Assembly (NCBI GenBank): GCA_964403125.1
Contig: CAYOEO010000002.1
Coordinates: 632-64,631, forward strand
Length of the DNA stretch: 64,000 bases
Direction: 5' to 3'
From: an uncultured Pseudomonadales bacterium
GTDB lineage: Bacteria > Pseudomonadota > Gammaproteobacteria > Pseudomonadales > UBA7239
The translations under genes and the position numbers were made by a program. Positions within the stretch are counted from its first letter, which is position 1. Every line of letters starts with the position of its first letter. The notes under the pieces are model-generated. The model made no database searches. It worked only from the letters and a program-made list of their open reading frames with translations, and was not told where the DNA came from. Positions 2,000-43,502 of this stretch are shown here, in pieces.

Positions 2000-2028
2000 G
2001 CCCCACTCGACGCTAAGGTAGAGAATCT

Positions 2029-4307
<2,279 letters not shown>

Positions 4308-4325
4308 TTGCCAGCGGAAGCACTC

Positions 4326-4754: not shown

Positions 4755-4780
4755 TTTTTAGCGGATAAGGCACGCAAAAG

Positions 4781-4804
4781 AGGCGACAGTGGTCGCCTTT
4801 TTTT
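4781..4804 (+). terminator. Rho-independent terminator of atp operon
   Basis: AGGCGAC-agtg-GTCGCCT followed by T-tract. Confidence 0.85.
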
Positions 4805-4853
4805 ATGGTTTAATGCAGCGAAATTATTGTCAGCGGAGTAGGGAATTCACGCT

Positions 4854-6218: not shown

Positions 6219-6234
6219 TTGAGGTTATTGGATT

Positions 6235-8067
6235 ATGTGCGGCATTGTCGGCGCGATTGCAGAAAGAAATATTACGGATATTTTGGTAGAAGGTTTAAAA
6301 CGATTGGAATATCGCGGCTATGATTCTGCTGGCGTTGCTGTACTAGAAAAAAATGGTGCGATTCGCGCCTGCAAGCGCGTGGGCAAAGTAGTGAATGTGC
6401 AAGAAGGTTTGCGCGAAGATCCAATCGCCGGTGTGTTGGGTATCGCGCACACGCGTTGGGCAACACACGGAAAACCTAGCGAAGCTAACGCGCATCCGCA
6501 TTTCTCCGGCGATCACGGTTTGGCGGTGGTGCACAATGGCATCATCGAAAATCATCAACAATTGCGTGAAAGATTATCAGCGAAGGGTTATCAATTTCTG
6601 AGTCAAACTGATACAGAAACCATCGTGCATTTGATTGATGATTGTTGGAAGTCTGGAGGCGATTTATTGTCGGCGGTGCGCTGTGCTATTTCACAACTGG
6701 AGGGCGCATATGCTTTGGCTGTGATTGCCGCGAGTGAGCCCAATAAAATGATTGCCGCGCGCGAAGGCAGTCCGCTGGTGATAGGCGTCGGTTATGGTGA
6801 GAATTTTGTCGCATCCGACCCACTCGCGCTGCGCATGATCACGGATCAATTTATTTATTTGGCGGAGGGTGATGTCGCGGTTGTTTCTCTCAATGCTGTC
6901 ACAGTGTTGGATAAAAATGGTGTGCAGCAACAAAGAAAAATTGAGCAAGTGGATGAAACGCACGATAGCGTCGACAAAGGTGAATATCGTCACTTTATGC
7001 TCAAAGAGATTTTTGAACAGCCCGCCGTTTTTGAGCAAACTTTGCAGGGAAGAATCACTAAAGATCATTTGGTTGAAGAATGCTTTGGTGTAGAAGCGCG
7101 CGAAAAATTAGACGCAGCGAAGGCAATACAAATTGTTGCCTGTGGTACCAGCTATCACGCGGGCATGGTGGCGCGTTATTGGATAGAGCAATATGCAGGG
7201 CTGCCCTGCCAAGTGGAAGTGGCGAGTGAGTTTCGTTATCGCCAGTGCAAACCGCTACCAGATACTTTGTTTGTGGCAATTTCACAGTCTGGAGAAACAG
7301 CAGATACTTTAGCCGCATTAAAAAACTTGGATCGTACTAACTACATTGGTAGTTTAGCGGTGTGCAATGTGGCAAATAGTGCTTTGGTGCGTGAAAGCGA
7401 TTTCTCGTTAATGACATTGGCGGGCACAGAAATTGGTGTCGCATCGACAAAAGCATTCACCAGTCAGTTGGTTGCGTTGCAGTTGTTGACGTTGGCGTTG
7501 GCGCGTCGCAATCAAGTCAATCCAGAACAAGAAAAGGCGTGGGTGGAAGCTCTGCATCGGCTGCCCGCGTTGTGCCGTGAAGTATTGAAATTGGAAAATG
7601 ATATTAAAAAAGTGGCGAAGAATTTTGATGAGCGCCAGAGCGCATTATTTTTAGGGCGCGGTGAGCAGTTTCCTGTGGCACTGGAAGGTGCGTTGAAGTT
7701 GAAAGAAATTTCTTACATACACGCTGAAGCGTATCCGGCAGGTGAATTAAAACACGGTCCTTTGGCGTTGGTAGATAAACACATGCCCGTTGTCGCGCTG
7801 CTGCCCGATAACGCATTGACCGACAAAATGATGTCGAATTTGGAAGAAGTGCGCGCACGCGGTGGGCAGTTGATTGTGTTGCGCGAACAAAATCATGTGA
7901 TGGATGAAACGGGGATTTGCTGTATTCGTCTGCCAGAAATGCCAGCTAGCTTAGTGCCCATTTTGTACAGCATTCCGTTACAGCTTTTGGCTTACCATGT
8001 TGCGGTGATGCGCGGAACAGATGTTGATCAACCGCGCAATTTGGCAAAAAGCGTTACCGTGGAGTGA
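6235..8067 (+). CDS. glmS: Glutamine--fructose-6-phosphate aminotransferase
   Basis: MCGIVG N-terminal Cys, LEYRGYDSAG, C-terminal PRNLAKSVTVE. Confidence 0.99.
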   Translation: MCGIVGAIAERNITDILVEGLKRLEYRGYDSAGVAVLEKNGAIRACKRVGKVVNVQEGLREDPIAGVLGIAHTRWATHGKPSEANAHPHFSGDHGLAVVHNGIIENHQQLRERLSAKGYQFLSQTDTETIVHLIDDCWKSGGDLLSAVRCAISQLEGAYALAVIAASEPNKMIAAREGSPLVIGVGYGENFVASDPLALRMITDQFIYLAEGDVAVVSLNAVTVLDKNGVQQQRKIEQVDETHDSVDKGEYRHFMLKEIFEQPAVFEQTLQGRITKDHLVEECFGVEAREKLDAAKAIQIVACGTSYHAGMVARYWIEQYAGLPCQVEVASEFRYRQCKPLPDTLFVAISQSGETADTLAALKNLDRTNYIGSLAVCNVANSALVRESDFSLMTLAGTEIGVASTKAFTSQLVALQLLTLALARRNQVNPEQEKAWVEALHRLPALCREVLKLENDIKKVAKNFDERQSALFLGRGEQFPVALEGALKLKEISYIHAEAYPAGELKHGPLALVDKHMPVVALLPDNALTDKMMSNLEEVRARGGQLIVLREQNHVMDETGICCIRLPEMPASLVPILYSIPLQLLAYHVAVMRGTDVDQPRNLAKSVTVE

Positions 8068-8075
8068 TCGGCTTT

Positions 8076-8435
8076 TTAGCGCCGATCGCCCGCTGTGTAA
8101 TTGACTTTGAGTGCGCGCTCGCGAATAAGTTGTAGGATTTCTTCGCGGTCGCTGGCAATCAATGTAGGGTGTGATGCTGCTTCTGGATACTCAACAAAAA
8201 ATTTTTCCAGTGATATTAGATCTTTGTAAACATCTTCAGGAAATCCTTGACGGTTTTCACGTCCTCTTTCTACCAGCATTAACGTATCCATGTAGTTAAA
8301 AAAAGCAGGGAAGCCCCATAGTTTTTTTACTTTCTCGAAAACGTGCGGCAATTTTTTGAGCGCTTCACAGCTTTCCAGTAATGCCAATCCATCAGCGTTA
8401 GTCATGGGTTTTAGTACGGGGATGTCGTCAGCCAT
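8076..8435 (-). CDS. Hypothetical protein (119 aa) with LWG...RQGFP motif
   Basis: Fills the gap between trmB and glmS; LWGFPAFFNYMDTLMLVERGRENRQGFPEDV resembles a small uncharacterised proteobacterial domain (from memory). Confidence 0.7.
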   Translation of the reverse strand: MADDIPVLKPMTNADGLALLESCEALKKLPHVFEKVKKLWGFPAFFNYMDTLMLVERGRENRQGFPEDVYKDLISLEKFFVEYPEAASHPTLIASDREEILQLIRERALKVNYTAGDRR

Positions 8436-8495
8436 GGTTGTGACCTTTGATGTTTGTCGCTGAGTGGGAGTCTAGCACGCTTTATTTTCGGCGCA

Positions 8496-9200
8496 TCAGA
8501 CCGTTTTTTGAAACAGTAAATCGTTGACCTTGTGCCCTAGGCGCTCTCCGCGCCGTTCAAATTTGGTTTCTGGGCGATAGTCGGGGCGCGTGCCGTACCG
8601 TCCTTCGCCAGCTAAGTTGTGCAAAGCGGAGTTTGCTGACACTACTTCGAGCATCACTTCTGCGTAAGGTTCCCAATCGGTCGCCATGTGTAACACGCCA
8701 CCAGTTTTTAATTTCTGTGTGACTAATGAGGCAAACTCCGGTTGCACAATGCGGCGTTTATGGTGACGGCTTTTGTGCCAAGGATCAGGAAAATAAAGCT
8801 GCACGCGTGTCAGGCTGTTATCGGTGATGCAGTCACGCAAAACATCCAACGCATCCGCACAAAAAATGCGCAAGTTTTGTAAATTGCGTTTGCGCGCTTC
8901 GCTCATCAATCGACCGACACCTGGCACATGCACTTCGATGCCGATAAAGTTTTGTGTTGGATTTTTTTCTGCCATTTCTAGCAGCGAATCGCCCATGCCG
9001 AAACCGATTTCCAAAACACATTCAGCGACCGGGTTGGGAAATGCGTTGTCGAGGGCTTGCGTGCCGTGTGTTAAATCCAAACCAAAAGTGAGCCAATCTT
9101 CCGCGATGGCTTTTTCTTGCGCCGGTGTGATACGCCCGCTGCGAATGACATAGGAGCGAATATCTTTGCGATTGAATTGCGGTTGTAGTGCGCGTGTCAT
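8496..9200 (-). CDS. trmB: tRNA (guanine-N7)-methyltransferase
   Basis: IRSYVIRSGR, LEIGFGMG, YFPDPWHKSRHHKRR, TKFERRG. Confidence 0.97.
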   Translation of the reverse strand: MTRALQPQFNRKDIRSYVIRSGRITPAQEKAIAEDWLTFGLDLTHGTQALDNAFPNPVAECVLEIGFGMGDSLLEMAEKNPTQNFIGIEVHVPGVGRLMSEARKRNLQNLRIFCADALDVLRDCITDNSLTRVQLYFPDPWHKSRHHKRRIVQPEFASLVTQKLKTGGVLHMATDWEPYAEVMLEVVSANSALHNLAGEGRYGTRPDYRPETKFERRGERLGHKVNDLLFQKTV

Positions 9201-9221
9201 GTTGTGCGGTATTGCTGGTGT

Positions 9222-10013
9222 TCAGCGGTGAATCAGGCCGTCGAGCGGTGAGGAGGCGCTGGCGTACAATTTGCGCGGCATACGACCGGCGAGAAAGGCT
9301 TCGCGCCCCGCTTCCACTGCTTTTTTCATCGCACTCGCCATCAATACAGGATTTTGTGCATGGGCAATGGCGCTGTTCATCAGCACTCCATCGCAGCCTA
9401 ATTCCATAGCAATCGAGGCGTCCGATGCCGTGCCGACACCGGCATCAACGATGATGGGTACGCTCGCGTTTTCTAAAATCATCATCAAGTTGTAAGGATT
9501 GCGTATGCCGAGACCGGAACCGATCGGCGCGCCCAGCGGCATCACCGCGCAGCAACCGATTTCTTCGAGGCGTTTGGCGACCAGTGGGTCATCGCTGGTG
9601 TACACCATCACATCAAAACCGTCTTTCACCAATTCTTCAGCGGCGATTAGCGTTTCGGTGACGTTGGGGAATAAAGTTTTTTGATCGCCCAACACTTCGA
9701 GTTTTACCAGCTTGTGACCGTCCAACAATTCGCGCGCCAGCTTGCAAGTGCGCACCGCTTCCACTGCGGTATAGCAGCCGGCGGTGTTGGGCAGAATGGT
9801 GTAGCGCGAGGGCGGCACTACATCCAACAAATTAGGTTCATTGGGGTTTTGACCGATATTGGTGCGGCGCACGGCGACGGTAATCATCTCTGCGCCAGAT
9901 GCTTCGGTGGCGGCAGCGGTTTCCGCGAGATCTTTGTATTTGCCGCTGCCGACAATCAAGCGCGAGCCGTAAGTTTTCCCCGCGATAACAAGAGGTTTGT
10001 CTGTTGTGCTCAT
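9222..10013 (-). CDS. thiG: Thiazole synthase
   Basis: [34 protein letters not shown]. Confidence 0.98.
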
Positions 10014-10015
10014 GG

Positions 10016-10216
10016 TTAGCCTCCGCCGATGGCATGCACAATTTCCACGCGATCACTGTTATGCAAAACGGTGCTGGCGTGTGTGCTGCGCGGCACGATG
10101 GTTTCATTGATTTCGATGGCAACGCGTTTGCCTGCCAAGCCTAGTTGTTCAAGTAGTTGCGCGGTGGTGGTACCGTCTGGCACAGAAGTGCTTTCACCGT
10201 TCAGAACAATTTGCAC
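10016..10216 (-). CDS. thiS: Sulfur carrier protein ThiS
   Basis: GTG start at 10216 gives 66 aa ending EIVHAIGGG; immediately upstream of thiG. Confidence 0.95.
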
Positions 10217-10218
10217 GT

Positions 10219-10602
10219 TTACTGCCCTTTGAAGCCGGCGTAAACCAAGCAAGCCCACGCCGCCAGCCACAACACACCGCCGATTGGGGTAATGGCACCG
10301 AGCCAGCGGATGCCACTCAAACTCAGCACATAGAGGCTGCCGCTAAACAGCACAATGCCCGCAAGAAACAGCCATCCGCTGATAGTCAGTGCGCGTGTAT
10401 TGAAACCTTGCGCCATCAAAATGCCTACGCCGAATAAAGCCAGTGTGTGCCAGAACTGGTACTGCACGGCGGTGTGCCAAACGGCGAGCAAATCTGCGGA
10501 TAGGCGATTTTTCAAACCGTGCGCGCCAAAGGCACCTAAGGCAACGGCGAGAAAGCCGCTCAGGGAAGCCAGAGCAATAAACAGAGAGGGCGGAAAAGGC
10601 AT
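10219..10602 (-). CDS. DUF423 (YgdD/TMEM256) membrane protein
   Basis: GAFGAHGL, TAVQYQFWH, FSGSLY, GAITPIGG; usual Pseudomonas-type position upstream of thiS. Confidence 0.9.
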   Translation of the reverse strand: MPFPPSLFIALASLSGFLAVALGAFGAHGLKNRLSADLLAVWHTAVQYQFWHTLALFGVGILMAQGFNTRALTISGWLFLAGIVLFSGSLYVLSLSGIRWLGAITPIGGVLWLAAWACLVYAGFKGQ

Positions 10603-10762
10603 GGAAAACTCAAAAATGGACAGCGGCGGCATTGTAGCAGTTTGCATTGTTAGGATAGTGGCGCGGTGGAATTTCACCTGCGTCAAGCATTCAGCGCGTA
10701 TCGCCGGAATGGTAGAATGCCCGCCCTTTTCCGTTTCGTTAAAGCCTTCAGAGGAGTCCGTT

Positions 10763-11890
10763 GTGGATCTCGATTTCAGCGAAGAACAAGTGATGCTGCG
10801 CGATACCGCGCGCGGTATTTGTGAAGAATTGTCGCCGTCTGCCGTGGTGCGGGCGATGGAGCAGGATGAGGCTGGTTACTCCGCCCCGTTCTGGCAGCAG
10901 TTGGCGGAATTGGGTATTACCAGTTTGGGTATTCCGGAAGCGCACGGCGGTATGGCCTGGGGCGCGCTGGAAATGGCGATTGTGTACGAAGAGTTCGGTC
11001 GCTCACTCGCGCCCAGCCCGCATTGGGCGAGCTGTGTGTTGTCGGCGAAATTGTTGGAGTTGGCCGGCACGGCGCAACAGCAGGAAAGCTTTTTGTCTGG
11101 CATTGCCAGCGGTGAAGTCATCATTGTGCCAGCGCATTTGGAGCCAAAAAATGGTTTTGGTGCCGAAGGTGTGCAACTGCGCGCGGTAAAACAAGGTGAT
11201 GGCTATGTATTGAATGGCACAAAATTGATGGTGCCGTTTGCCGCTTCAGCCACACGCTTGCTGGTGTTGGCGCGCGCCGGCGAAGGTGTGCAAGATGTGA
11301 TCGGCGTGTTGGTGGATCCCAAAGCCGCTGGCGTTACGCTGACACGCGAACGCAATCACGCTGACGACACTGTATTTCAAGTTGATTTCAAAAATGTTTC
11401 CGTCAATGCAAGCGATGTGTTGAACACAGCCGGTTTTTGGGCGGCGTGGGAAAATGCAATGACGCATTCCATCGTTGCATTAGCGGCGCGCTCGATTGGC
11501 GCCGCAGAAGCGATTCATGCGATGACAGTCGATTACGCCAAGCAGCGCGTGCAGTTCGGTAAGCCCATTGGTTCTTTTCAAGCGATCGCACATTATCTGG
11601 CAGATTTAATCGTCAAAATCGAAGGTGCAAAAGTGTTGGTGTATCAAGCGGCATGGGCGATTGATAACAACAAACCTTTCGAAAAAATTGCCCTGCAAGC
11701 GAAACTGCAAGCCTGCAATGTGTTGCGCGATGCTTCAGCAATCGGCGTACAAGTACACGGCGGTTTTGGTTTTACTTCCGAAGGTGATCCGCAGTTGTAT
11801 TTCCGTCGCGCCAAACATTGGCAGTTGACCAACTGGGACAGTGCTTATTTAGAAAAACGCATCGCAGCGTTAATTCTCGACGCGGCGTAA
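10763..11890 (+). CDS. Acyl-CoA dehydrogenase family protein, probable non-catalytic subunit of a heterotetramer
   Basis: GTG after GAGGAG; FSEEQVMLRD, RVQFGKPIGSFQAI, QVHGGFGFT; C-terminal YEG(T) motif absent. Confidence 0.88.
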   Translation: MDLDFSEEQVMLRDTARGICEELSPSAVVRAMEQDEAGYSAPFWQQLAELGITSLGIPEAHGGMAWGALEMAIVYEEFGRSLAPSPHWASCVLSAKLLELAGTAQQQESFLSGIASGEVIIVPAHLEPKNGFGAEGVQLRAVKQGDGYVLNGTKLMVPFAASATRLLVLARAGEGVQDVIGVLVDPKAAGVTLTRERNHADDTVFQVDFKNVSVNASDVLNTAGFWAAWENAMTHSIVALAARSIGAAEAIHAMTVDYAKQRVQFGKPIGSFQAIAHYLADLIVKIEGAKVLVYQAAWAIDNNKPFEKIALQAKLQACNVLRDASAIGVQVHGGFGFTSEGDPQLYFRRAKHWQLTNWDSAYLEKRIAALILDAA

Positions 11891-11903
11891 TGAGGTAAAT
11901 GCG

Positions 11904-12785
11904 ATGAAACTTCTTGAAGGAAAAGCAGCAATTGTGACCGGCAGCGGTCGCGGTGTGGGGCGCGGTCACTGTCTGCATTTGGCAAAAAACGGTGCGAAAG
12001 TTGTCGTCAACGACATTCTGTTGGAAGAAGCGCAAAAAGTGGCCGATGAAATTAAAGCGGAGGGCGGTGAAGCGATTGCCAGCAATGCAGACATCGGCTC
12101 ACGCGCCGGCTGTGAATTGCTCGTGCAGCAGTGTGTGGATGCCTTTGGCGGTATTGATATTGCCATCAACAACGCCGGTATTGTGCGTGATAAAACCTTG
12201 TTGAAATTGGAAGATGCCGATTTCGATATCGTGTGGCGTATTCACGTCATGGGCACATTCTGGATTGCACAAACTGCCGCGAAAAAAATGATCGAACAGG
12301 GTCGCGGCGGCTCCATCATCAACACCACTTCGGGCGCACATTTCGGCAGCTTTGGTCAAACCAATTACTCTGCCGCCAAAGGCGCAATCGCTTCCATGAC
12401 CTACACTTGGGCGATGGAATTGGCAAAACACGGCATACGCGTGAATGCGATTGGTCCACTCGCCACTACACATATGTCGGCGACTTTTTCTGATGCAGAC
12501 AAAATGCCGTTTTTTCCACCTGAAAATAACGGCCCTATCGTTTGCTGGTTGTGCAGCGATGAAGCGAATTATGTGTCCGGCCAAATTTTTGGCACGGGCG
12601 GCGATCGCATTTCACACATGGTGCAACCGCATTACGGTAAAACTTTGATCAAGCCGGGCGGTTGGGAAATCGACGATATTCGTCAGCATTTCAAACAACA
12701 TATTCCGCCAGAATTTGGCGCGTTTGGTATGTTGGGTAAACCGTATCCATTTCATGCCGGCGTGAAACCGCCAGTGAAGGAGTAA
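11904..12785 (+). CDS. SDR family oxidoreductase (3-hydroxyacyl-CoA dehydrogenase-like, C-terminally extended)
   Basis: TGSGRGVG, NNAGIVRD, NYSAAK (YxxxK). Confidence 0.92.
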   Translation: MKLLEGKAAIVTGSGRGVGRGHCLHLAKNGAKVVVNDILLEEAQKVADEIKAEGGEAIASNADIGSRAGCELLVQQCVDAFGGIDIAINNAGIVRDKTLLKLEDADFDIVWRIHVMGTFWIAQTAAKKMIEQGRGGSIINTTSGAHFGSFGQTNYSAAKGAIASMTYTWAMELAKHGIRVNAIGPLATTHMSATFSDADKMPFFPPENNGPIVCWLCSDEANYVSGQIFGTGGDRISHMVQPHYGKTLIKPGGWEIDDIRQHFKQHIPPEFGAFGMLGKPYPFHAGVKPPVKE

Positions 12786-12790
12786 ACAAT

Positions 12791-14242
12791 ATGGCAGGCA
12801 TTATTTCTCACGGCGCGTACATTCCGCGCATGCGTTTGCCTTTATCTGTGATTGCAGGCAAAGCGCCGAAAGAAGGCGGGCCAGAAAAAGCCGTCGCGTG
12901 GATGGATGAAGATAGTGTGACCATGGCGGTCGCCGCTGCACAAAATTGTTTGCAAGGTTTTGATCGTGCGCGCGTGGACGCGGTGTTGTTTGCTACCACG
13001 ACTTACGCGTTTGCAGAAAAACAAGGCGCGGCGATTATTGCCAAAGCCTTAAATCTGAAAGGCGATGTGCGCACGGCGGATATTTCGCACAGCACACGCG
13101 CTGGCACGATTGCACTGCAATCAGCTATTGACGCTGTGAAAGCGGGCAGCGCGCAACGCGTGTTGGTGATTGCGGCGGATTGCCGCATGGGCGCGCCGGG
13201 CTCTGGCTTCGAAGCCAATACTGGCGATGCCGCCGCCGCATTTTTAGTCGGCGCAGAAGGCGCGATTGCGACACTGGATTGCGCTTGCGCACACACCACA
13301 GAAATCATCGACATCTGGCGTAAACAGGGCGACCGTTTTGTGCACGGCTGGGAAGATCGTTTCGTCAATGTGCACGGTTATATCGAAAACACTGTCGCAG
13401 CAATTCAGGGTTTGGTGGCAAAAAGCGGTGCCGCTTTATCTTCCATCAACAAAGCCGTTTTATACGCGCCGGAAGCGCGCTTACTCGGTGAAATGAGCAA
13501 AGCGGCGGGTGTTGCCAAAGAGCAAATCCAAGATCCGTTGTTTGGCAAAGTGGGCAATGCCGGTACCGCGTTTGCGCCCTTGTTGTTGATTGCGGCATTG
13601 GAACAAGCGCAAGCGGGTGAAAAAATTCTGGTCGCCAATTACGGTGACGGTGCCGACGCTTTATTGGTTTCTGTCAACGGTGCGCGTGTAAAAGCAGAAG
13701 GGCATCGCAGCGTGAGTGCATTGTTGGCGCGTCGCAAAGTCGTCGACGCTTACGGCAAATACATGAAAGCGCGCGGTTTGACGATCACGGAATATCCCGA
13801 AGTAGACGATCAAGGTATTTCTGCCACTGTGCATTTCCGTGAGCGCGATGAAGATTTGTCGCTCGAAGGGCAGCAGTGTTCGCATTGCGGCACGCATCAA
13901 TTTCCGAAAGGTCGTGTGTGCGTGCGCTGTCACAGCAAAGATCAGTGGACACCCGCTTGCTACAGCGATTTAACGGGTAGTGTTGTGACTTACACACTGG
14001 ATGCATTTTTTCCTTCGCCAGAGCCGCCAACAGCAGTGGGCATTATCGAAGTGAAAAATGCAGACGGCTCGGCTGGAGCGCGCATCCACATGCAAATTTG
14101 CGAAACTTTTGCCAAAGATATTGCGGTAGATTTGCCAGTGGAATTTACTTTCCGCTGCATCCACCGCGTGGGTCAACGCCCCAATTATTTCTGGAAATGT
14201 ACGCCGATTGTTTCTGCCTCTGTTGAAGGAGTTGCCGCATGA
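12791..14242 (+). CDS. HMG-CoA-synthase/KAS-III-like fold fused to DUF35 Zn-ribbon/OB-fold domain
   Basis: N-terminal YIPRMRL, DEDSVTMAVAAA, VGNAGTA; C-terminal CSHC-x10-CVRC and GSVVTYT...ARIHMQI OB-fold. Confidence 0.85.
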   Translation: MAGIISHGAYIPRMRLPLSVIAGKAPKEGGPEKAVAWMDEDSVTMAVAAAQNCLQGFDRARVDAVLFATTTYAFAEKQGAAIIAKALNLKGDVRTADISHSTRAGTIALQSAIDAVKAGSAQRVLVIAADCRMGAPGSGFEANTGDAAAAFLVGAEGAIATLDCACAHTTEIIDIWRKQGDRFVHGWEDRFVNVHGYIENTVAAIQGLVAKSGAALSSINKAVLYAPEARLLGEMSKAAGVAKEQIQDPLFGKVGNAGTAFAPLLLIAALEQAQAGEKILVANYGDGADALLVSVNGARVKAEGHRSVSALLARRKVVDAYGKYMKARGLTITEYPEVDDQGISATVHFRERDEDLSLEGQQCSHCGTHQFPKGRVCVRCHSKDQWTPACYSDLTGSVVTYTLDAFFPSPEPPTAVGIIEVKNADGSAGARIHMQICETFAKDIAVDLPVEFTFRCIHRVGQRPNYFWKCTPIVSASVEGVAA

Positions 14243-15402
14243 GCATTAAAGACAAAGTGGCAATCGTCGGCGTGGGTTGCTGTAAGTTCGGTGAGAACTG
14301 GGATAAATCTGAAGAAGACATGATTGTCGATGCGGCGTACGAAGCGTATGCCGATGCCGGCATCACTGAACCCGCTAAACAAATTGATGCGATTTATTGC
14401 GGCTCTTTGTACACCAAAAACGGCCCCGTGGAAGTCAGTGAAGCGCTCAAATTGTATAAACCGCTCACCGCTGTTTCCAATTATTGCGCCACAGGAACGG
14501 AAGCGTTTCGCGCGGGCGTGATGGCGATTGCAGCGGGTGTGTACGACACGGTGTTGGTCGTCGGTTACGACAAACCGAAAGATCGCGGTGTGTCCGGCCC
14601 CAGCGTCAACATCAAAGGTGTGCGCGATTTGCCTGCGACGCCTGCGGGTTGGTTTGCCATGTGCGCCGCGCCCTACTTCAAAAAATTTGGCGCAGGCCGT
14701 GAAGATTTGGCAAAAATTGCGGTAAAAAATCACTACAACGGCACGCTGTCACCGAAATCTTTTTTGAAAAAAGTGATTACAGAAGACGACGCGCTCAATG
14801 GCCGCATGATTTCTTGGCCTTTTGGTTTGTACGATTGCGCCGCGCAATCAGACGGCGCTGCCGTTGCAGTAATTACCAAGGCTTCATTAGCAAAAAATTT
14901 TCGCGATGATCCCGTGTATGTCAAAGCCGTGGCGAGTGGCTCGGCGGCGAATCCGCACACCGACCCTGATCACGATTTCTTGCGTTGGAAGCCGACAGAA
15001 AATGCGGCGGCAGAAGCGTACAAAATCGCTGGCATCAGCAATCCGTTCAAAGAAATTCATATCGCGCAAGTGCACGATTGCTTCACTCTCACCGAATTGT
15101 TGGCGTATGAAGATTTAGGGTTTATCCCAAAAGGCTCCGCGAAAGAGCACATCGCCAACGGCACGTTCACCTTGAAAGGTGAGTTGCCGGTGAATACCGA
15201 CGGCGGCTTGAAAACCTTCGGTCACCCCACTGGTGCAACCGGTGTGCGCATGATTGTGGAAAATGTGTTGCAGTTGCAGGGGCGTGCGGACAAACGCCAA
15301 TTGTCGCAGCACAACGGCAAACAACCGACGATGGCGCTGACACATAATATCGGTGGTTTCCCAACAGGGTGCGCCGTGAGCATTATCGGCATTGATAAAT
15401 AA
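14239..15402 (+). CDS. SCP2/SCPx-type thiolase-like acetyl-CoA acyltransferase
   Basis: VAIVGVG..KFGE, NYCATG, HDCF, GHPTGATG; start overlaps previous stop (ATGA coupling). Confidence 0.9.
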   Translation: MSIKDKVAIVGVGCCKFGENWDKSEEDMIVDAAYEAYADAGITEPAKQIDAIYCGSLYTKNGPVEVSEALKLYKPLTAVSNYCATGTEAFRAGVMAIAAGVYDTVLVVGYDKPKDRGVSGPSVNIKGVRDLPATPAGWFAMCAAPYFKKFGAGREDLAKIAVKNHYNGTLSPKSFLKKVITEDDALNGRMISWPFGLYDCAAQSDGAAVAVITKASLAKNFRDDPVYVKAVASGSAANPHTDPDHDFLRWKPTENAAAEAYKIAGISNPFKEIHIAQVHDCFTLTELLAYEDLGFIPKGSAKEHIANGTFTLKGELPVNTDGGLKTFGHPTGATGVRMIVENVLQLQGRADKRQLSQHNGKQPTMALTHNIGGFPTGCAVSIIGIDK

Positions 15403-15421
15403 GTGCAGCGAGGTGATCGCG

Positions 15422-15967
15422 ATGAACGCAAGGATGTGTAAAGTTTTTCTGATTCTGTTGGCAATGGGGCTGGCAGGCTGTGTTGCGATGACAGAACCGA
15501 AAGAGCGTGCAGCGCCGGAGACAGTGTCTTTGGCGCTCAACCAACAAGATGTGCAATACATGTGTGCATCGCCCATTTATTTGAGCGATGTAACAAAAAG
15601 TTTTTCATTGCCTTTGGGCAGTAATGATCGCACGGTGGCGATGGGTGCTTTGCTCAATCAAGCCGTACAAAAAATGTTTTGGAAAGAAACCAAAGCGGGT
15701 AATGTCGTCGCACCGGTGGTGACTTTGGGTTTTGATGGTGGCACAGGTGCTTATCGCGATAGCACGCTGTATGTGCGCATCAGTTTGCAATTTCAAATTT
15801 TCAAACCGACCGGACAGTCGTACATGGATATTGCTGTTGGTGAATCGTCCTCTGATTCCGCGCCAGATTCTAGTGATGGCGCCGTGGTCAATGCTGCGTT
15901 GCAGCAAGCGCTGGGACGATTGGCTGGCGTGTTAAAAAGCGCGGGCATTTGCCGTGCCATGCGTTAA
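15422..15967 (+). CDS. Hypothetical lipoprotein
   Basis: ATG after GAGGTG; signal peptide ending in LAGC lipobox. Confidence 0.75.
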   Translation: MNARMCKVFLILLAMGLAGCVAMTEPKERAAPETVSLALNQQDVQYMCASPIYLSDVTKSFSLPLGSNDRTVAMGALLNQAVQKMFWKETKAGNVVAPVVTLGFDGGTGAYRDSTLYVRISLQFQIFKPTGQSYMDIAVGESSSDSAPDSSDGAVVNAALQQALGRLAGVLKSAGICRAMR

Positions 15968-16022
15968 AAAACGCGTTAAAAAAGATGAGAAAAAACAAGA
16001 GAAAACATAAAAAGGTTTTGTT

Positions 16023-16838
16023 ATGAATTTTGAAACACTCACCTATGCCGTTACCGATGGTGTCGCTGTTATCTCGTTGAATCGCCCGCAACAGCGCAAC
16101 GCGGTGAATTCAGTGATGAGTCGTGAATTGCCGCAAGTGTGGCAATACTTTAATCAGGACAAATCGGCGGTGGTTGCAATTCTCACGGGCGCTGGTGATA
16201 AAGCACTGTGCACGGGCGCAGATTTAGCCGATCTGCCAGAAACCGATGGCGAAGTTGACGATCAAGGTCGCAAGTTTGGCACGCTGGCTTCTATCAAGTG
16301 GACATCGCTACAAAATCGCATTTGGAAACCAGTGATTTGTGTTGTCAATGGCATGGTGGTGGGCGGTGGTCTGCATTTTGTGGCAGATTCCGACATTGTG
16401 ATTGCCGCAGATTCGGCCACATTTTTTGATACGCATGTGAAAGTGGGATTGGTTGCCGGTTTAGAGCCTGTCAGCTTAGTGCGCAAAATGCCGTTTGATG
16501 CGGTGATGCGCATGGCATTGACCGGTGGCAACGAACGCATGACGGCGCAGCGTGCATATGAACTGGGCATGATCAGTGAAGTGGTACCAGCGGCAGAATT
16601 GATGCAACGCGCGCACGCTTTAGCGGATTTAATCAAAACCAATTCACCTGTTGCTTTGGCGCGTACAAAAAAAGCAGTGTGGGAAGCGAAAGAAGTGGGA
16701 CTGCACGCCGGTTTGGAAAACGCGTGGCAATACATCATGGCGCAAAACACGCACCCTGATATTGCGGAGGGCGGCAAAGCATTTATGGAGCGCCGCGCGC
16801 CGCAGTGGCAGCCGTATGCAGGTGAATGTGACGATTGA
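16023..16838 (+). CDS. Crotonase-superfamily protein (enoyl-CoA hydratase/isomerase-like)
   Basis: ISLNRPQQRNA, CTGADL, VNGMVVGGG, TAQRAYELGMISEVVP. Confidence 0.92.
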   Translation: MNFETLTYAVTDGVAVISLNRPQQRNAVNSVMSRELPQVWQYFNQDKSAVVAILTGAGDKALCTGADLADLPETDGEVDDQGRKFGTLASIKWTSLQNRIWKPVICVVNGMVVGGGLHFVADSDIVIAADSATFFDTHVKVGLVAGLEPVSLVRKMPFDAVMRMALTGGNERMTAQRAYELGMISEVVPAAELMQRAHALADLIKTNSPVALARTKKAVWEAKEVGLHAGLENAWQYIMAQNTHPDIAEGGKAFMERRAPQWQPYAGECDD

Positions 16839-16850
16839 TGTGACTGCGCA

Positions 16851-17192
16851 ATGAATGAAGCGGCGGAACAACCGTTTTGCGTAGTGCTGATAACAGCAGT
16901 GCATCGCGCAGAAGCGGAATGCCTCGCGCATTTGTTAGTAGAACAACAGTTAGCAGCCTGTGTGCAATTGCTGCCGATAGATAGCGTTTATGTTTGGGAA
17001 AATACGGTAAAAAAGGATTCTGAAGTGTTGATGCTAATCAAAACTTCAAAAGCCAATTTCGTCAGCATTGAGGTTTTAATTAAACAGCATCACAGTTATC
17101 AGGTACCTGAAATCATTCAGTTACCGATTGAGCAAGGCTCTGCCGCGTATTTGCAATGGCTTGCAGATGCTGTGGGCGAAAAAAAACATTAA
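16851..17192 (+). CDS. cutA: Divalent-cation tolerance protein CutA
   Basis: LAACVQL, SVYVWE, HSYQVPEII, YLQWL. Confidence 0.93.
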   Translation: MNEAAEQPFCVVLITAVHRAEAECLAHLLVEQQLAACVQLLPIDSVYVWENTVKKDSEVLMLIKTSKANFVSIEVLIKQHHSYQVPEIIQLPIEQGSAAYLQWLADAVGEKKH

Positions 17193-17206
17193 CTTGAGGT
17201 GAAAAA

Positions 17207-18358
17207 ATGTCAGACCCTATCATCATCGTTGGCACAGGATTATCTGGTTATACATTGGGTAAAGAGTTTCGTCGTCACGACAAAGAAACGCCTTTGTTGT
17301 TTATCACTACGGATGATGGTCGCAATTATTCCAAGCCGATGTTGTCAACGGGGTATACAAAGAAAAAAACGGCAGATGAATTGGCAGTGGCTGATGCCGG
17401 TGCAATGGCAGAGCAATTACAAGCGTCGATTCGCACTTTCGCTAAAGTTACGGCAATTGATCCAGCCAATCACGAAATCAGTATTGGTGATGAAAAATTG
17501 CGTTACAGCAAACTGGTTCTTGCTTGGGGTGCGGAATGTATTCGCGCACCACTGCAAGGTGACGGTCAAGATTTCGTGTATTCCGTGAATGATTTGTTGG
17601 ATTACGCAGAGTTTCGCAAAGCGGCTGTCGGCAAGAAAAAAGTTTTGATTATTGGTGCGGGTTTGATTGGCAGTGAGTACGCCAATGATTTAGCGGCAGG
17701 CGGATACGAAATCGTTGCAGTGGATCCTTTGTCTGGTCCGCTGGGTTCTTTGCTGCCGCCGAAAGCCTCGGCGGCTGTGCAGCACGCGTTAGAGCGTGAT
17801 TGCAAAGTGCATTACCACTTTGGCACGGTCGTTGAAACGATCGACAAAAAAGATGCTGGCATTGTGGCAACGCTGGCCGATGGTTCAAAAGTGGAAGCAG
17901 ATATCGTGCTGTCCGCTGTCGGCATGCGCCCGCGTATCGGCTTGGCGCGTCAATCCGGTATCGCGGTCAATCGCGGCATCACCGTTAATCGTTACTTGGA
18001 AACTTCTGTGCCTGATGTGTATGCCATGGGTGATTGTGCAGAAGTGGAAGGTCATGTGCGTTTTTATGTGCTGCCGTTGATGGCTTGTGCGCGCACACTG
18101 GCAAAAACTTTATCAGGCGAGCGCACGGCTGTGGTTTACGGTCCAATGCCGGTTGGCGTAAAAGTGACCGTGTGTCCGATTCAGTTATCGCCACCGTTGC
18201 ACGGTGCAGTGGGTGAGTGGCAGGAAGAAGTGGATGGTGACAATGTGCGCTCACTGTTCCGAGGTCCAGAAGGTGATTTGTTGGGCTTTGCTTTGACTGG
18301 CAAGTGCACAGAACAAAAAACAGAATTGGCGAAAGAATTGCCCAATATTCTCGCGTAA
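17207..18358 (+). CDS. rubB: Rubredoxin--NAD(+) reductase
   Basis: IIIVGTGLSGY, YSKPMLST, GAGLIGSEYANDL, GDCAE, YVLPLM; 383 aa like pseudomonad RubB/AlkT. Confidence 0.85.
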   Translation: MSDPIIIVGTGLSGYTLGKEFRRHDKETPLLFITTDDGRNYSKPMLSTGYTKKKTADELAVADAGAMAEQLQASIRTFAKVTAIDPANHEISIGDEKLRYSKLVLAWGAECIRAPLQGDGQDFVYSVNDLLDYAEFRKAAVGKKKVLIIGAGLIGSEYANDLAAGGYEIVAVDPLSGPLGSLLPPKASAAVQHALERDCKVHYHFGTVVETIDKKDAGIVATLADGSKVEADIVLSAVGMRPRIGLARQSGIAVNRGITVNRYLETSVPDVYAMGDCAEVEGHVRFYVLPLMACARTLAKTLSGERTAVVYGPMPVGVKVTVCPIQLSPPLHGAVGEWQEEVDGDNVRSLFRGPEGDLLGFALTGKCTEQKTELAKELPNILA

Positions 18359-18376
18359 TTTTTGTTCGGAAAACAT

Positions 18377-18408
18377 AAGGCAGGCTTGCAAACAAGTCTG
18401 CCTTTTTT
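18377..18408 (+). terminator. Rho-independent terminator after rubB
   Basis: AAGGCAGGCTTG-caaa-CAAGTCTGCCTT plus T-tract. Confidence 0.85.
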
Positions 18409-18450
18409 ATTGTGTCTTACCGATAATGCGCACAGATTTTTGGAGGCAAT

Positions 18451-20778
18451 ATGAACAGTATTGAACAAACTATCGCGCAAAAAATTGCCAAAGAATTATC
18501 AGTACAAGCGGTGCAAGTGATTGCTGCTGTGCAGCTCTTGGATGATGGCGCTACCGTGCCGTTTATCGCGCGATATCGCAAAGAAGTGACAGGTGCTTTG
18601 GATGATACGCAGTTGCGTACACTGGAAGATCGTTTGGCATATTTGCGTGAATTGGAAGAACGACGAAAGTCAGTGATCGCTAGTATTACTGAGCAGGGAA
18701 AATTAACGCCAGTATTAGAAAAAGATATTCTGGAGGCGGAAACCAAAAATCAATTGGAAGATTTATACCTTCCGTACAAACCCAAACGCCGAACCAAAGC
18801 ACAAATTGCGCGCGAGGCGGGATTAGAGCCGCTAGCGCACGCATTGTTGGAGAACCCCCAATTAACTCCCATTGAAGAAGCCAATAAGTATTTGAATGCC
18901 GATCATGCTGTAAATGACGCACAGGCAGCATTGGATGGCGCGAAGCAAATCCTCATGGAGCAGTTCAGTGAAGATGCAAAACTGGTTGGTGATTTGCGCG
19001 AACTGCTGACGGATAGCGGTTTCGTGAAGTCACAGGTAGTCGATGGCAAGCAGAGCGAAGGTGAAAAATTTCGCGATTATTTTGATTTCAGTGAGAAAGT
19101 GTCTGTTATGCCTTCGCATCGCGCGTTAGCGGTCTTTCGCGGACGCAAAGAAGGTATATTGAATGCATCTTTGGTGTTGCCCGAAGAATTGACTACGCCG
19201 GATCATGTCTGCGAAAGAAGAATCGCCGCACGTTTTGTTATTAAAAATGAAGGGCGTGCGGCGGATGCGTGGTTGGCGGAAGTGGTGCGCTGGACTTGGC
19301 GCATCAAACTGCTGACGCATCTGGAAACCGATTTGCTGGGGCAGTTGCGCGAGCGTGCCGAAGAGGAAGCGATTCGCGTTTTTGCCAGTAACCTCAAAGA
19401 TTTGTTATTGGCGGCTCCTGCAGGGCAAAAAGTGACGCTGGGTTTAGATCCAGGCTTGCGTACCGGTGTGAAAGTAGCCTTGGTGGATAACACGGGTAAA
19501 GTGTTGCAGCACGGCGCAATGTTTCCGCATCCGCCACAGAATAAATTACCGGAAGCAGAGAAAATTCTGTTTGCATTGTGCAAGCAATACAACGTTGACC
19601 TCATCAGTATTGGCAATGGCACAGCGTCGAGAGAGACTGAAAGATTTGTCGCGGATGTGTTGAAAAAACACAGTGAGCTCACAGCTAAGAAAGTGGTGGT
19701 GAGTGAAGCGGGCGCTTCGGTGTATTCGGCATCGGAGTTGGCGGCAAAGGAGTTTCCGGATTTAGATGTCACCATTCGTGGTGCAGTGTCGATTGCGCGG
19801 CGCTTGCAAGATCCATTGGCGGAGTTGGTGAAAATTGAGCCGAAGTCAATCGGTGTCGGTCAGTATCAACACGATGTCAACCAAGTGCAGTTGGCGAAAA
19901 CACTGGATGCGGTGGTGGAAGATTGCGTAAACGGTGTCGGTGTGGATGTGAACACGGCATCGGTGGCGCTGCTCAAACGCGTATCTGGCCTTAATCAAAC
20001 ATTGGCTGCGAATATCGTTGAGTTTCGCGATAAACATGGCGCATTCCACAATCGTGAATCCTTAAAAGCTGTACCGCGTATGGGAGATAAAACTTTTGAA
20101 CAGGCGGCAGGTTTTTTGCGTATCAACGACGGTGAAAATCCATTGGATAAATCCGCTGTGCATCCAGAGTCGTACAGCGTTGTGCAGCGCATCGCAGAAA
20201 AAAATCAGCGTTCAGTGGGTAGCTTGATTGGCGACAGCGCATTTTTGCGCACCGTGCAAGCAAAAGATTATGTGTGTGAAAAGTTTGGTGTATTGACGGT
20301 GCAAGACATCATTCGCGAATTGGATAAGCCAGGACGTGATCCGCGTCCTGAATTTAAAACAGCCAGTTTCCGCGACGGCGTTGAAAAAATTTCTGATTTG
20401 CAAATTGGCATGGTGTTAGAAGGTGTTGTCACCAATGTGGCGAACTTCGGTGCGTTTGTGGATGTCGGTGTGCATCAAGATGGTTTAGTGCATATTTCTG
20501 CTATCACGAATCGTTTTATTAAAGATCCGCGTGAAGCCGTGAAAACAGGTGATATTGTTAAAGTAAAAGTGCTGGAAGTGGATGCTGCACGTAAGCGTAT
20601 TGCATTGACGATGCGTTTAGATGATGAAGTGATTGCCAAAACAGATAGCAGTAAAGCACCCAAAGTGGATCGCAAAACCAGCGAGCGTTACCTCAATGGT
20701 GGGCAGGCTAAACCGGCTGCCACAGGGTCAATGGGCGATCTTCTGCGCAAGGCGATGGAGAAACAAGGTGGTCGCTAA
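18451..20778 (+). CDS. tex: Tex family RNA-binding transcriptional accessory protein
   Basis: [32 protein letters not shown]-terminal S1 domain ([18 protein letters not shown]). Confidence 0.97.
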
Positions 20779-20867
20779 AAAATATATTTTTCGCAGCATC
20801 TTGTGGGTTTGCCTCTCACACTGCTAGTGTAAATGCGCGTATTTATTTCATGCTCCAGGAGGGCAAT

Positions 20868-21836
20868 ATGCGCGCATTGATCGGTATTTTATTGGCAACT
20901 TTTTTCTTGGCGGGCTGTTCCAGCTATGAGCAGGATTATCGCCAAGTGGGTCGTTATTCCGACGGCTACTACGGTGGTGGTAGCAGCTCGACGACCACCT
21001 ATTACAGCAACGATGGCGGCTATTACGGCGGCGGTAGTACTACGGTGTACGCCACCAATAATTACGGCTACTACTATCCGTTTGGCAACATGTACTACCC
21101 GCGTGATCGCATTTGGATCATCGGCACGTACGGTGGCTGTAACTATTACACCTATCGCGGCTACTGCTACCGCTATCGTGACGATTTTGATCGCGTCATC
21201 ATCTGGGATCGCCAACACGGTTATGACGACAACTGGTATCGCCAGCGCGAGAACTGGTGCCGTTACCACGACTGCCATCACGACAACATTGTGCGCGACA
21301 GCAAAGGTCGCCCCATCGCGCCGCCGCGCGTAGAGCGCGACAGAATGCAGGTAGCGCCGTCTCCATCGCGCTCGCCGTATCCCACTTACCAACCTAATCG
21401 CAACAACTCATCACATTGGGATCGCGATGATGACGATGATCGCCATGACAACAATGGGAGAGGTAACAGCGGGCGTTCGTGGGATAACCGTCAACCGTAC
21501 ACCACGCCACAGCCGGTAATTCGCAACACGGGCAGCGGCTGGCAGGTGGACAACAGCACTTCCGGCCAGCCGGTGAATCAGCACACGCGCCCTGTGATGG
21601 TGCCAAGAAGCACAAACAGCGGTTGGGCTGGCTCGACAGGAAATAGCGATAACTCTAGCCGCTCAGGCATGGTGACGCGCAGTGCACCACAGACTTCAAG
21701 CGGCAGCAGCGATGCGTCAAACTCTGCTCACACGAACGGTGGGCACAGCCAAAACAACAACAGTAACGGTGGAGGCAATGGGCATCAGCGACAGTGGAAT
21801 AACCGTCGTGGTGGCGGCTCTGGCGATGATCAATAA
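20868..21836 (+). CDS. Hypothetical low-complexity lipoprotein (Tyr/Gly-rich then Ser/Asn/Gly/Arg-rich)
   Basis: ATG after AGGAGG; LAGC lipobox; GYYGGGS twice; disordered-looking tail. Confidence 0.8.
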   Translation: MRALIGILLATFFLAGCSSYEQDYRQVGRYSDGYYGGGSSSTTTYYSNDGGYYGGGSTTVYATNNYGYYYPFGNMYYPRDRIWIIGTYGGCNYYTYRGYCYRYRDDFDRVIIWDRQHGYDDNWYRQRENWCRYHDCHHDNIVRDSKGRPIAPPRVERDRMQVAPSPSRSPYPTYQPNRNNSSHWDRDDDDDRHDNNGRGNSGRSWDNRQPYTTPQPVIRNTGSGWQVDNSTSGQPVNQHTRPVMVPRSTNSGWAGSTGNSDNSSRSGMVTRSAPQTSSGSSDASNSAHTNGGHSQNNNSNGGGNGHQRQWNNRRGGGSGDDQ

Positions 21837-40883: not shown

Positions 40884-40942
40884 ACAGTGTTTCCATTTTG
40901 AAATCAAACAGAACAATAACTTTAAGCTAGAGGTTGAGCAGT

Positions 40943-43402: not shown

Positions 43403-43431
43403 TGCTGTTTTGATGCCGTGTAAAAATGACT

Positions 43432-43459: not shown

Positions 43460-43502
43460 TTTGCAACGATTTTTAATTTTGCTTGAGAAAAAAGGAGTCA
43501 TT

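Follow-up and report, generated by a model that had tools for sequence, protein, structure and literature searches.

A reduced CoA-dependent gene cluster in an uncultured Pseudomonadales bacterium resembles the ring-degradation module of estrogen degraders

The gene cluster

The window, a stretch of 64,000 nucleotides from the genome of an uncultured Pseudomonadales bacterium (contig CAYOEO010000002.1, positions 632 to 64,631), contains at 10763–16838 the six-gene, CoA-dependent cluster that is the subject of this report; positions are those of the window throughout. An initial annotation, made from the sequence alone, described six tightly packed genes, three of them encoding enzymes without canonical catalytic residues, and proposed an undescribed pathway of C–C bond cleavage or formation. 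All six genes were confirmed on the forward strand, of the types named and at the coordinates given earlier, and are separated by 13, 5, −4 (an ATGA overlap), 19 and 55 bp. They are as follows.

10763–11890, + strand: acyl-CoA dehydrogenase (ACAD); GTG start with AGAGGAG just 5′ of it; three ACAD Pfam domains
11904–12785, + strand: short-chain dehydrogenase/reductase (SDR); Pfam adh_short
12791–14242, + strand: fusion protein of 483 residues, of which 1–330 are like 3-hydroxy-3-methylglutaryl-CoA synthase (HMGS) and 350–473 form a DUF35 part (ChsH2-type zinc ribbon and OB fold); Pfam zf-ChsH2
14239–15402, + strand: thiolase of the SCP2/archaeal type; passes the cut-off of NCBIfam PRK06157; start overlaps the stop of the fusion gene (ATGA)
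15392–15967, + strand: open reading frame of a lipoprotein, likely ATG start at 15422; signal peptide and lipobox LAGC
16023–16838, + strand: crotonase; Pfam ECH_1

The encoded proteins

The closest solved structures of the fusion are the archaeal HMG-CoA synthase chain 6ESQ_I (E 4e-38), PhlA and, for DUF35, chain 6ESQ_E (E 3.6e-5). An AlphaFold model (pLDDT 76, pTM 0.83) gave 6ET9_I, PhlA and MucA as its best fold matches, with 6ET9_I as the top match in Foldseek (TM-score 0.79 relative to the target). The protein nevertheless scores 215 bits with the NCBIfam HMGS models, under the cut-off of 244, and the catalytic tetrad E82/C114/H238/N270 of archaeal 6ESQ is represented by T70, T102, Y225 and N256, so that three of the four residues are lost and only N256 is kept; PhlA has T, G and F at the positions of E, C and H. 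To follow such residues in other genomes, we used a pattern scan with one genome per species, in which 171 loci encode the fusion, examined the best 80 of these 171, and drew from the examined loci a census of 71 thiolase, 44 SDR, 81 fusion and 49 crotonase orthologs. Among the 81 fusion homologs, T is constant at position 70, T, L or V stands at position 102, and Y, F, S or Q at position 225, with Glu, Cys and His never found there. The zinc-ribbon cysteines 363, 366, 377 and 380 are invariant, as are, in the pocket of the HMGS-like domain, E76, K77, Q78, R103, D130, R132, H185, E188 and R190.

The thiolase, which scores 412 bits with PRK06157 (cut-off 403), has the archaeal acetoacetyl-CoA thiolase (ACAT) 6ESQ_A (E 1.8e-43) and BbsB 7PXP_C among its solved relatives, PhlC being more distant (E 5e-24), and its residues C83, H279-D-C-F282, N319 and G328-H-P330 are invariant in the 71 orthologs. 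An HMGS-fold subunit, a DUF35 zinc ribbon with its OB fold and an SCP2-type thiolase are thus encoded together, the gene set of a tripartite complex. We predict that the thiolase is the catalytic, C–C cleaving subunit and that the fusion, inert for HMG-CoA synthesis, is its scaffold, because the archaeal, Phl and Muc complexes are the best sequence and fold matches of the fusion and because the two genes overlap by ATGA, fitting co-translation. At L046, L058, L064, L065 and L070 (the L numbers denote loci in other genomes), the fusion gene is followed directly by that of the crotonase with no thiolase gene adjoining, and L046 has a second SCP2 thiolase and a separate DUF35 gene upstream; at these loci the fusion may pair with a different thiolase.

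The nearness of the fusion, in both fold and sequence, to archaeal HMGS, PhlA and MucA, together with the adjoining and translationally coupled thiolase gene, could also be taken to indicate a biosynthetic complex that forms C–C bonds, either in HMG-CoA formation of the archaeal type or in Friedel–Crafts C-acylation as by PhlACB and MucABC. We consider this highly improbable, since the E, C and H of the tetrad are gone family-wide, the thiolase keeps the HDCF motif that is lost in PhlC and MucB (PMC12960953), a fused complex of the same kind from Pseudomonas fluorescens yields neither acetoacetyl-CoA nor HMG-CoA (PMC12960953), no mevalonate, polyketide synthase (PKS) or nonribosomal peptide synthetase (NRPS) genes were seen in the window, and the neighbouring genes are catabolic.

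The SDR has as its closest solved relatives the (3R)-hydroxyacyl-CoA dehydrogenase of C. tropicalis (2ET6), 17β-HSD4 and BbsD, and its catalytic residues S143, Y155 and K159 are invariant in the 44 orthologs; it is a predicted (3R)-hydroxyacyl-CoA dehydrogenase of the kind of 17β-HSD4, BbsD and multifunctional enzyme type 2 (MFE-2). This BbsD-like SDR and the DUF35-associated SCP2 thiolase are among the enzyme classes that the cluster has in common with the β-oxidation of aryl- or alkyl-succinyl-CoA in anaerobic toluene degradation (BbsG, BbsH, BbsCD, BbsAB), and fused family III CoA-transferases resembling BbsEF are encoded at some related loci. A Bbs-like function is nonetheless quite improbable, given that the thiolase scores 150.5 bits with the BbsB equivalog model (cut-off 750), that the window has neither a CoA-transferase nor a second SDR subunit, and that Bbs has no HMGS-like subunit. 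The mevalonate, Friedel–Crafts and Bbs readings were rejected on residues and model scores.

In the ACAD, the position of the catalytic base of medium-chain acyl-CoA dehydrogenases (MCAD) is taken by N357 in an alignment with CarC ('IYE'), and that of the base of isovaleryl-CoA dehydrogenases (IVD) by H235/S236. Its FAD motifs are degenerate, with LEPKNGFG for (S/T)EPxAGSD and KLMVPFA for KxFITNG. The top NCBIfam matches, all far below their cut-offs, include IpdE2 and, over the whole protein, the PimD small subunit, and the structure matches include the solved steroid-ACAD chains Tcur3481 (6WY8_A) and 4X28_D, the latter of which we take to be the ChsE4–ChsE5 entry. The protein resembles, in these sequence features, the non-catalytic β-subunit type of heterotetrameric steroid-type ACADs, of the PimD-small/IpdE2 kind. 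In α2β2 steroid ACADs, the base is on one subunit only and FAD is bound at the dimer interface (PMC8399759). An ACAD of the window type shares its locus with a Glu-bearing α ACAD in L013, L023, L065, L070, L080, L081, L082 and L083, the α gene lying in the same operon in L013, L081 and L082 and in the divergent operon in L083, all outside the window clade. In these α ACADs, and in the α′ ACADs described below, SEPxAGSD is present and the IVD position is occupied by Glu ('DLER', 'RFER'), whereas the window-type ACAD has neither feature, so that the pairing fits the α2β2 pattern with a single base-bearing subunit. Asp359 of the ACAD (11837–11839), two residues past the usual MCAD base, is shared by 16 of 18 orthologs, while the protein of Novosphingobium sp. 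ES2-1 has Glu there; this residue may be a shifted base or play a structural part.

A canonical enoyl-CoA hydratase has two catalytic Glu residues, Glu144 and Glu164 in rat numbering, and the crotonase has neither: the Glu residues of 'GGGSEL' and 'LPEV' in 3R0O are replaced by H118 and H138. Together with D136 and E148, these two histidines are invariant in the 49 orthologs and are kept in ES2-1. The closest solved structure is the uncharacterised 3TLF, with D and H at the two Glu positions, and no NCBIfam cut-off is reached; a single-sequence AlphaFold model was of too low confidence to be informative (pLDDT 35). Another enzyme of the crotonase fold, 6-oxocamphor hydrolase, has a His/Asp active site, and it was absent from the 60 best solved-structure matches of the crotonase, also when the active-site segment alone was searched.

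The initial annotation is therefore borne out: canonical residues are missing from the ACAD, the HMGS-like domain and the crotonase, and the thiolase and the SDR are intact, the catalytic residues of the last two being invariant throughout their orthologs. The loss is not a random one, however, as the replacements are conserved. N256 of the tetrad is retained. That the replacement residues are fixed across orthologs indicates specialised subunits, not decay.

Correspondence with the estrogen-degradation cluster

With the fusion as tblastn query, 47 plasmid records were returned, mostly from Sphingobium, Rhodococcus and Novosphingobium, the best being plasmid p3 of Novosphingobium sp. ES2-1 (48.5% identity), a strain from activated sludge that degrades estradiol (PMC12507874). 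The annotation of p3 lists an ACAD, an SDR, an 'OB-fold' fusion, an acetyl-CoA acetyltransferase, two crotonases, a hypothetical protein, a lipid-transfer protein, an OB-fold protein and a P450, with divergent genes for a VOC dioxygenase, a VOC protein, an indolepyruvate oxidoreductase (IOR), an ACAD and two MaoC proteins, and with a FadD3-family ligase gene nearby. The ACAD (38% identity), SDR (64%), fusion (49%), thiolase (71%) and crotonase (54%) of the window lie in the same order as their ES2-1 counterparts and are best mutual matches with them. Both sets also have the same residue peculiarities, namely the absence of the HMGS residues E, C and H, a His/His crotonase (GGGIHF, IDTHV and GLEP in ES2-1) and an ACAD without its base.

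The same arrangement is found in the edc cluster of Novosphingobium (Caenibius) tardaugens NBRC 16725, whose operon OpA is the equivalent of oec gene cluster II of Sphingomonas sp. KC8. OpA begins with EGO55_13525 (edcA, a P450), followed by genes for a ChsH2-like hydratase, a lipid-transfer protein and an enoyl-CoA hydratase/isomerase, and then by EGO55_13545 ('BadI-like' hydrolase), 13550 (thiolase), 13555 ('HMG-CoA synthase'), 13560 (3-hydroxyacyl-CoA dehydrogenase) and 13565 (ACAD); OpB comprises edcB, a VOC gene, edcC, the ACAD gene 13585, two MaoC genes and a TonB-dependent receptor gene (PMC7793797). The window order matches EGO55_13565 to EGO55_13545 as described (PMC7793797), that is, ACAD, 3-hydroxyacyl-CoA dehydrogenase, 'HMG-CoA synthase', thiolase and 'BadI-like' crotonase, or five of the six window genes. 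By gene order, the window ACAD would be the counterpart of EGO55_13565, the OpA gene that stands first in this direction, and the crotonase that of the gene annotated as BadI-like; for the crotonase we predict a ring-opening (retro-Claisen) hydrolase.

Deletion of either OpA or OpB abolishes growth on estradiol and leaves growth on testosterone intact, the single deletions made being those of edcA, edcB, edcC and edcT only, and the scheme proposed there leaves the 'HMG-CoA synthase' without an assigned step (PMC7793797). In the edc pathway, the meta-cleavage product is converted to an acyl-CoA by EdcC, an enzyme of the indolepyruvate oxidoreductase type (PMC7264893). One thiolytic round of β-oxidation then takes off C2 and C3 as acetyl-CoA, ring B is opened hydrolytically, and C1 and C10 are removed aldolytically (PMC7264893, PMC12507874) to give HIP, the C/D-ring intermediate common to steroid degradation (PMC7264893).

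On homology, synteny and residue patterns, we hold with moderate confidence that the window carries a cut-down version of the CoA-dependent, β-oxidation-like module that estrogen degraders employ once the phenolic A ring has been opened (edc OpA/oec cluster II). The pathway type is already known, and this cluster is a reduced further instance of it. The earlier proposal of an undescribed pathway is accordingly not supported, the cluster corresponding largely gene for gene to one already described. Its other elements fared better, as the parts list is of the steroid ring and side-chain and Bbs kind, not that of ordinary β-oxidation, and a multi-subunit system for a bulky cyclic acyl-CoA is supported; taken as a whole, the interpretation in the initial annotation is partly supported.

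Distribution in other genomes

The 80 loci come from metagenome-assembled genomes (MAGs) of Pseudomonadales/Cellvibrionales, from Myxococcota and 'Deltaproteobacteria', and from Candidatus Binatia. Most of them repeat the arrangement of SDR, fusion, thiolase and crotonase genes, and since it recurs across several phyla, chance does not explain the cluster; the genes are co-conserved, as the initial annotation had asked to see checked. The ten closest loci (L001–L010, fusion identity 85–93%) have the window gene order including the lipoprotein. Two further Pseudomonadales MAGs (L011 and L012) encode an edcB-like extradiol dioxygenase (44–45% identity) directly upstream of the ACAD, and L012 also an EdcC-like IOR downstream (55% identity).

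The reduction of the cluster relative to full edc clusters, and the lineage-specific lipoprotein gene inserted in it, might suggest that an edc-like cluster is here decaying into a non-functional remnant, three of whose enzymes have simply lost activity. We give this hardly any credence, as all reading frames are intact, the proteins are 82–98% identical within the clade and, with the exception of the ACAD, 50–73% identical across phyla, and the replacement residues are invariant over 49–81 orthologs, including those of a proven estradiol degrader.

In other phyla, the commonest order is IOR (divergent), luciferase-like oxidoreductase, ACAD-α, ACAD-β, SDR, fusion, thiolase, crotonase 1 and crotonase 2. 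This nine-gene cluster is conserved in Myxococcota, Deltaproteobacteria and Binatia MAGs among L015–L080 (e.g., L018, 5146–14269, and L078); its oxidoreductase belongs to the F420/luciferase-like monooxygenase class, its IOR is EdcC-like (50–60% identity to the ES2-1 protein), and no edcB-like dioxygenase was found within 10 kb. The EdcC-like IOR adjoins the core in 27 of the 80 loci, and was detected only in loci labelled Myxococcota or Deltaproteobacteria, plus L012. The second crotonase (13529–14269 in L018, and 56 other loci) has lost both catalytic Glu residues, with Thr and Phe in 55 of the 57 sequences; it is the counterpart of the edc 'enoyl-CoA hydratase/isomerase' and is absent from the window clade. 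Near several loci there is also a second module, encoding an α′ ACAD, a family III CoA-transferase, two MaoC-type hot-dog proteins and an ACAD of the window type.

The only cultured organism among the 80 loci is Pseudomaricurvus alkylphenolicus KCTC 32386 (L013), which has nearly the whole gene set inside 15 kb (616–14899): an α′ ACAD, a CoA-transferase, two MaoC-type proteins and a β′ ACAD; a thiolase and a DUF35 protein; two crotonases; a LuxR regulator; and the fusion, thiolase, SDR and an acyl-CoA synthetase. This organism would offer a convenient experimental handle. An EdcC-like IOR with about 70% identity to that of L012 also occurs outside edc contexts, on two contigs with no gene overlap with the window (L084, 10001–13964; L085, 5373–13952), where it stands among housekeeping genes and is followed in each case by a PNPOx-like gene; in L085 a crotonase-2 ortholog, an old yellow enzyme (OYE) reductase and a medium-chain (MDR) dehydrogenase are near it. 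The pathway genes may thus be scattered in some gammaproteobacterial genomes.

Proposed mechanism and its alternatives

We suggest the following sequence of events. The ACAD would act as the non-catalytic β partner of an α2β2 dehydrogenase whose OpB-type α subunit is encoded elsewhere. The MFE-2-type SDR is predicted to receive a (3R)-hydroxyacyl-CoA from two MaoC-type hydratases, likewise encoded elsewhere, and to oxidize it to the 3-oxoacyl-CoA. The latter would be cleaved by the SCP2-type thiolase (Cys83, His279/Cys281, His329), held and stabilized by the inert HMGS-like/DUF35 fusion. The His118/His138 crotonase would then open the adjacent ring of a 2-oxo-cycloalkane-carboxyl-CoA by retro-Claisen hydrolysis, that is, act as the ring-B hydrolase. 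The α ACAD, MaoC pair, aldolase and ring-activating enzymes would lie elsewhere in the genome, or else the module may serve another substrate; estrogens are the only documented one, and for this lineage a related fused-ring phenolic is equally possible.

Several observations weigh against this assignment. The 64-kb window holds no match to edcB/OecC by tblastn or to the edcC IOR, and no edcA P450/OecB, α ACAD (no second ACAD of any kind), MaoC pair or aldolase; compared with the edc cluster it thus lacks edcA (P450), edcB (dioxygenase), edcC (IOR), the OpB ACAD and the two MaoC hydratases, and likewise the second crotonase, the aldolase pair of lipid-transfer protein and ChsH2-like protein, and the TetR regulator. 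The cluster also stands in a housekeeping region, described below, not in a catabolic island or plasmid, and has the extra lipoprotein gene. Given the missing edc genes and these surroundings, a complete pathway in this organism is a proposal only. Identity to ES2-1 is just 38–71%, and the fusion is closer (about 55%) to those of Myxococcota clusters than to that of ES2-1; as these clusters carry the luciferase-like oxidoreductase and a different ACAD pair and no edcB, the substrates may differ, and the module is probably older and broader than estrogen catabolism. The 'ring hydrolase' rests on pathway logic and on the invariant non-hydratase residues, since BadI is not among the 25 best NCBIfam matches of the window crotonase and the L018 ortholog scores 125 bits with the BadI model (cut-off 467.6). 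As for the reference systems, the edc cluster was defined genetically and by transcriptomics, with OpA enzyme assays limited to EdcA, and the OpA deletion also removed edcA, which confounds its phenotype (PMC7793797); the ES2-1 region is equated with the N. tardaugens cluster by gene order and annotation, not by sequences, and the P. fluorescens complex compared below is likened by its published description alone, not by sequence comparison.

With regard to the α ACAD, a query of a set of 5.8 billion proteins with the L013 protein gave listed matches that were all at least 75% identical, Aromatoleum and Steroidobacter proteins dominating. The one Pseudomonadales protein among the matches listed (P0167) belongs to a complete operon of another organism, in the order α, CoA-transferase, MaoC, MaoC, β.

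Some of the same observations could be accommodated by β-oxidation of non-ring substrates, such as 2-methyl-branched isoprenoid or dicarboxylic acyl-CoAs, in a bacterial analogue of peroxisomal MFE-2/SCPx that opens no ring and in which the crotonase is an isomerase, thioesterase or acyl-CoA carrier. In its favour are an SDR nearest to MFE-2 (3R)-hydroxyacyl-CoA dehydrogenases, an SCP2-type thiolase, an ACAD like PimD, the small subunit of pimeloyl-CoA dehydrogenase, a setting of housekeeping genes without oxygenase genes, and a cluster for uptake and oxidation of hydrophobic substrates 22 kb off. We nevertheless think this unlikely, because gene order and content fit edc OpA and not any fatty-acid cluster, because in L011 and L012 the module is linked to extradiol dioxygenase and IOR genes, and because a crotonase with a strictly invariant His/His/Asp/Glu set would be expected to have a catalytic task of its own.

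The assignment to the estrogen-degradation module could be extended to a broader claim of three parts, which we regard, when taken jointly, as doubtful. The crotonase, with His118/Asp136/His138/Glu148, would represent a class of ring-cleaving CoA-ester retro-Claisen hydrolase not described before; the strongly conserved HMGS-like pocket would be a second functional site that binds or channels a bulky acyl-CoA, making the complex more than a scaffolded thiolase; and estrogen degradation would be one known instance of a widespread pathway for fused-ring phenolics, running from a 2-oxoacid oxidoreductase through modified β-oxidation to ring hydrolysis, in Pseudomonadales, Myxococcota and Binatia, the fusion being encoded in the genomes of at least 171 species.

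Transcription unit and genomic setting

Downstream of the crotonase gene, at gaps of 12 and 14 bp, follow two more genes and a hairpin.

16851–17192, + strand: cutA; Pfam CutA1
17207–18358, + strand: NorW/rubredoxin-reductase-like flavoprotein gene; Pfam Pyr_redox_2 and Rbx_binding
18377–18404, + strand: terminator-like hairpin; 12-bp stem and T run

The hairpin is the sole strong long-stem terminator candidate in 10200–18600, although the scan as a whole was not enriched relative to shuffled sequences, and it is likely, from the sequence, to end the transcription unit. As it lies beyond cutA and the flavoprotein gene, the unit may comprise eight genes, and these two are probably co-transcribed with the cluster even though their linkage elsewhere is inconsistent: the pair is cluster-linked only in some close relatives (L001, L002, L005, L008 and L010). 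Among the annotated neighbours of the flavoprotein gene, no rubredoxin or P450 gene was noticed, small open reading frames not having been scanned. A promoter scan gave no signal above shuffled expectation.

The lipoprotein has no Pfam family match and was seen only in the closest Pseudomonadales MAGs (32–72% identity), being absent from edc clusters; by these comparisons it is a clade-specific insertion between thiolase and crotonase. The DUF2846 protein that L012 has in its place is not significantly similar to it, and in L009 a glycosyltransferase-41/TPR gene is inserted between lipoprotein and crotonase. The window DNA is present at a depth of about 7–11-fold in wetland and soil metagenomes (runs X1–X4), and wastewater runs carry the sequence too; the sequencing runs containing it are DNA runs only, with no RNA runs among them. 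Assemblies of runs X1 and X3 break at 13182–13240, inside the fusion gene, and at 15238–15277, at the thiolase/lipoprotein junction, the loose ends being unrelated sequence. These breaks suggest co-existing strain variants, which fits the variable lipoprotein position among relatives.

The cluster is set in a housekeeping region, with atp genes, glmU, glmS, trmB, thiG, a likely thiS and a DUF423 gene on its 5′ side and tex, parE, pdxB, pyrG, kdsA and eno on its 3′ side, and the 64-kb window contains no paralogs of the six genes. A 328-residue open reading frame between tex and parE (20850–21836) matches no Pfam or NCBIfam family. About 22 kb downstream, 39558–49758 carries a gene set typical of hydrophobic-substrate uptake and oxidation.

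39558–40883: BNR/Ycf48-like protein
40934–43402: MMPL/RND transporter with a weak sterol-sensing-domain match
43461–45107: GMC oxidoreductase
45126–46991: hybrid PAS histidine kinase
47884–49758: DUF1302 protein

Significance

The edcC gene is treated in the literature as specific to estrogen-degrading Pseudomonadota. The EdcC-like genes found beside the module at MAG loci labelled Myxococcota and Deltaproteobacteria bear on its use as a Pseudomonadota-specific marker of estrogen removal, and the module itself occurs in uncultured Pseudomonadales of wetland, soil and wastewater metagenomes. The analysis also makes testable predictions of enzymology, that the two edc ACADs form an α2β2 pair and that the His/His crotonase is a candidate ring-B hydrolase.

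A second consequence is a link between the unassigned 'HMG-CoA synthase' of the edc cluster (PMC7793797) and the orphan loci encoding HMGS, ACAT and DUF35 proteins (PMC12960953). The comparison suggests that, in an edc-type pathway, at least one family of HMGS–DUF35 fusions serves as the scaffold of the thiolase by which the opened A ring is shortened.

Comparison with known systems

Among characterized enzymes, the α2β2 ACADs (ChsE4–ChsE5, IpdE1–IpdE2 and Tcur3481–3483) and PimCD offer the parallel to the window ACAD, which likewise is without the catalytic Glu and the FAD motif. It differs from them in having no α gene within the 64 kb, in scoring far under the family cut-offs, and in retaining a full-length middle domain and the conserved Asp359. 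The Bbs pathway follows a common logic of ACAD, crotonase, SDR and DUF35-bound SCP2 thiolase, and BbsD and BbsB are among the best solved relatives of the window proteins, but the proteins are not orthologous and Bbs uses a different ACAD type.

The archaeal thiolase/HMGS/DUF35 complex has the same three modules and supplies the best matches for the fusion, its DUF35 part and the thiolase, but it consists of three separate proteins, its HMGS is active (E82, C114, H238, N270), and it is anabolic, serving the mevalonate pathway. In the C-acetyltransferases PhlACB of P. protegens and MucABC of Streptococcus, the HMGS-like subunit is without the tetrad and catalysis takes place in the thiolase-like subunit; PhlC and MucB have lost HDxF and use phenolic or tetramic acceptors, whereas the window HDCF is invariant and its context catabolic.

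A functional parallel may be the complex of ACAT and an HMGS–DUF35 fusion from P. fluorescens, in which the HMGS part is without the tetrad and the thiolase has the Cys, HDxF and GHx motifs, and which in vitro cleaves acetoacetyl-CoA and makes neither this compound nor HMG-CoA (PMC12960953). The 2026 report counts about a thousand orphan HMGS–ACAT–DUF35 loci, views the P. fluorescens fusion as an evolutionary intermediate without a pathway, and makes no mention of estrogen degradation or steroid catabolism (PMC12960953). In both cases HMGS and DUF35 are fused, the thiolase has the same Cys/HDxF/GHx set, and no PKS or NRPS genes are near. The window fusion differs in lying within a conserved catabolic operon, theirs having been assigned no pathway, and by analogy the demonstrated thiolysis without condensation is the very activity that we propose for the thiolase and fusion of the window.

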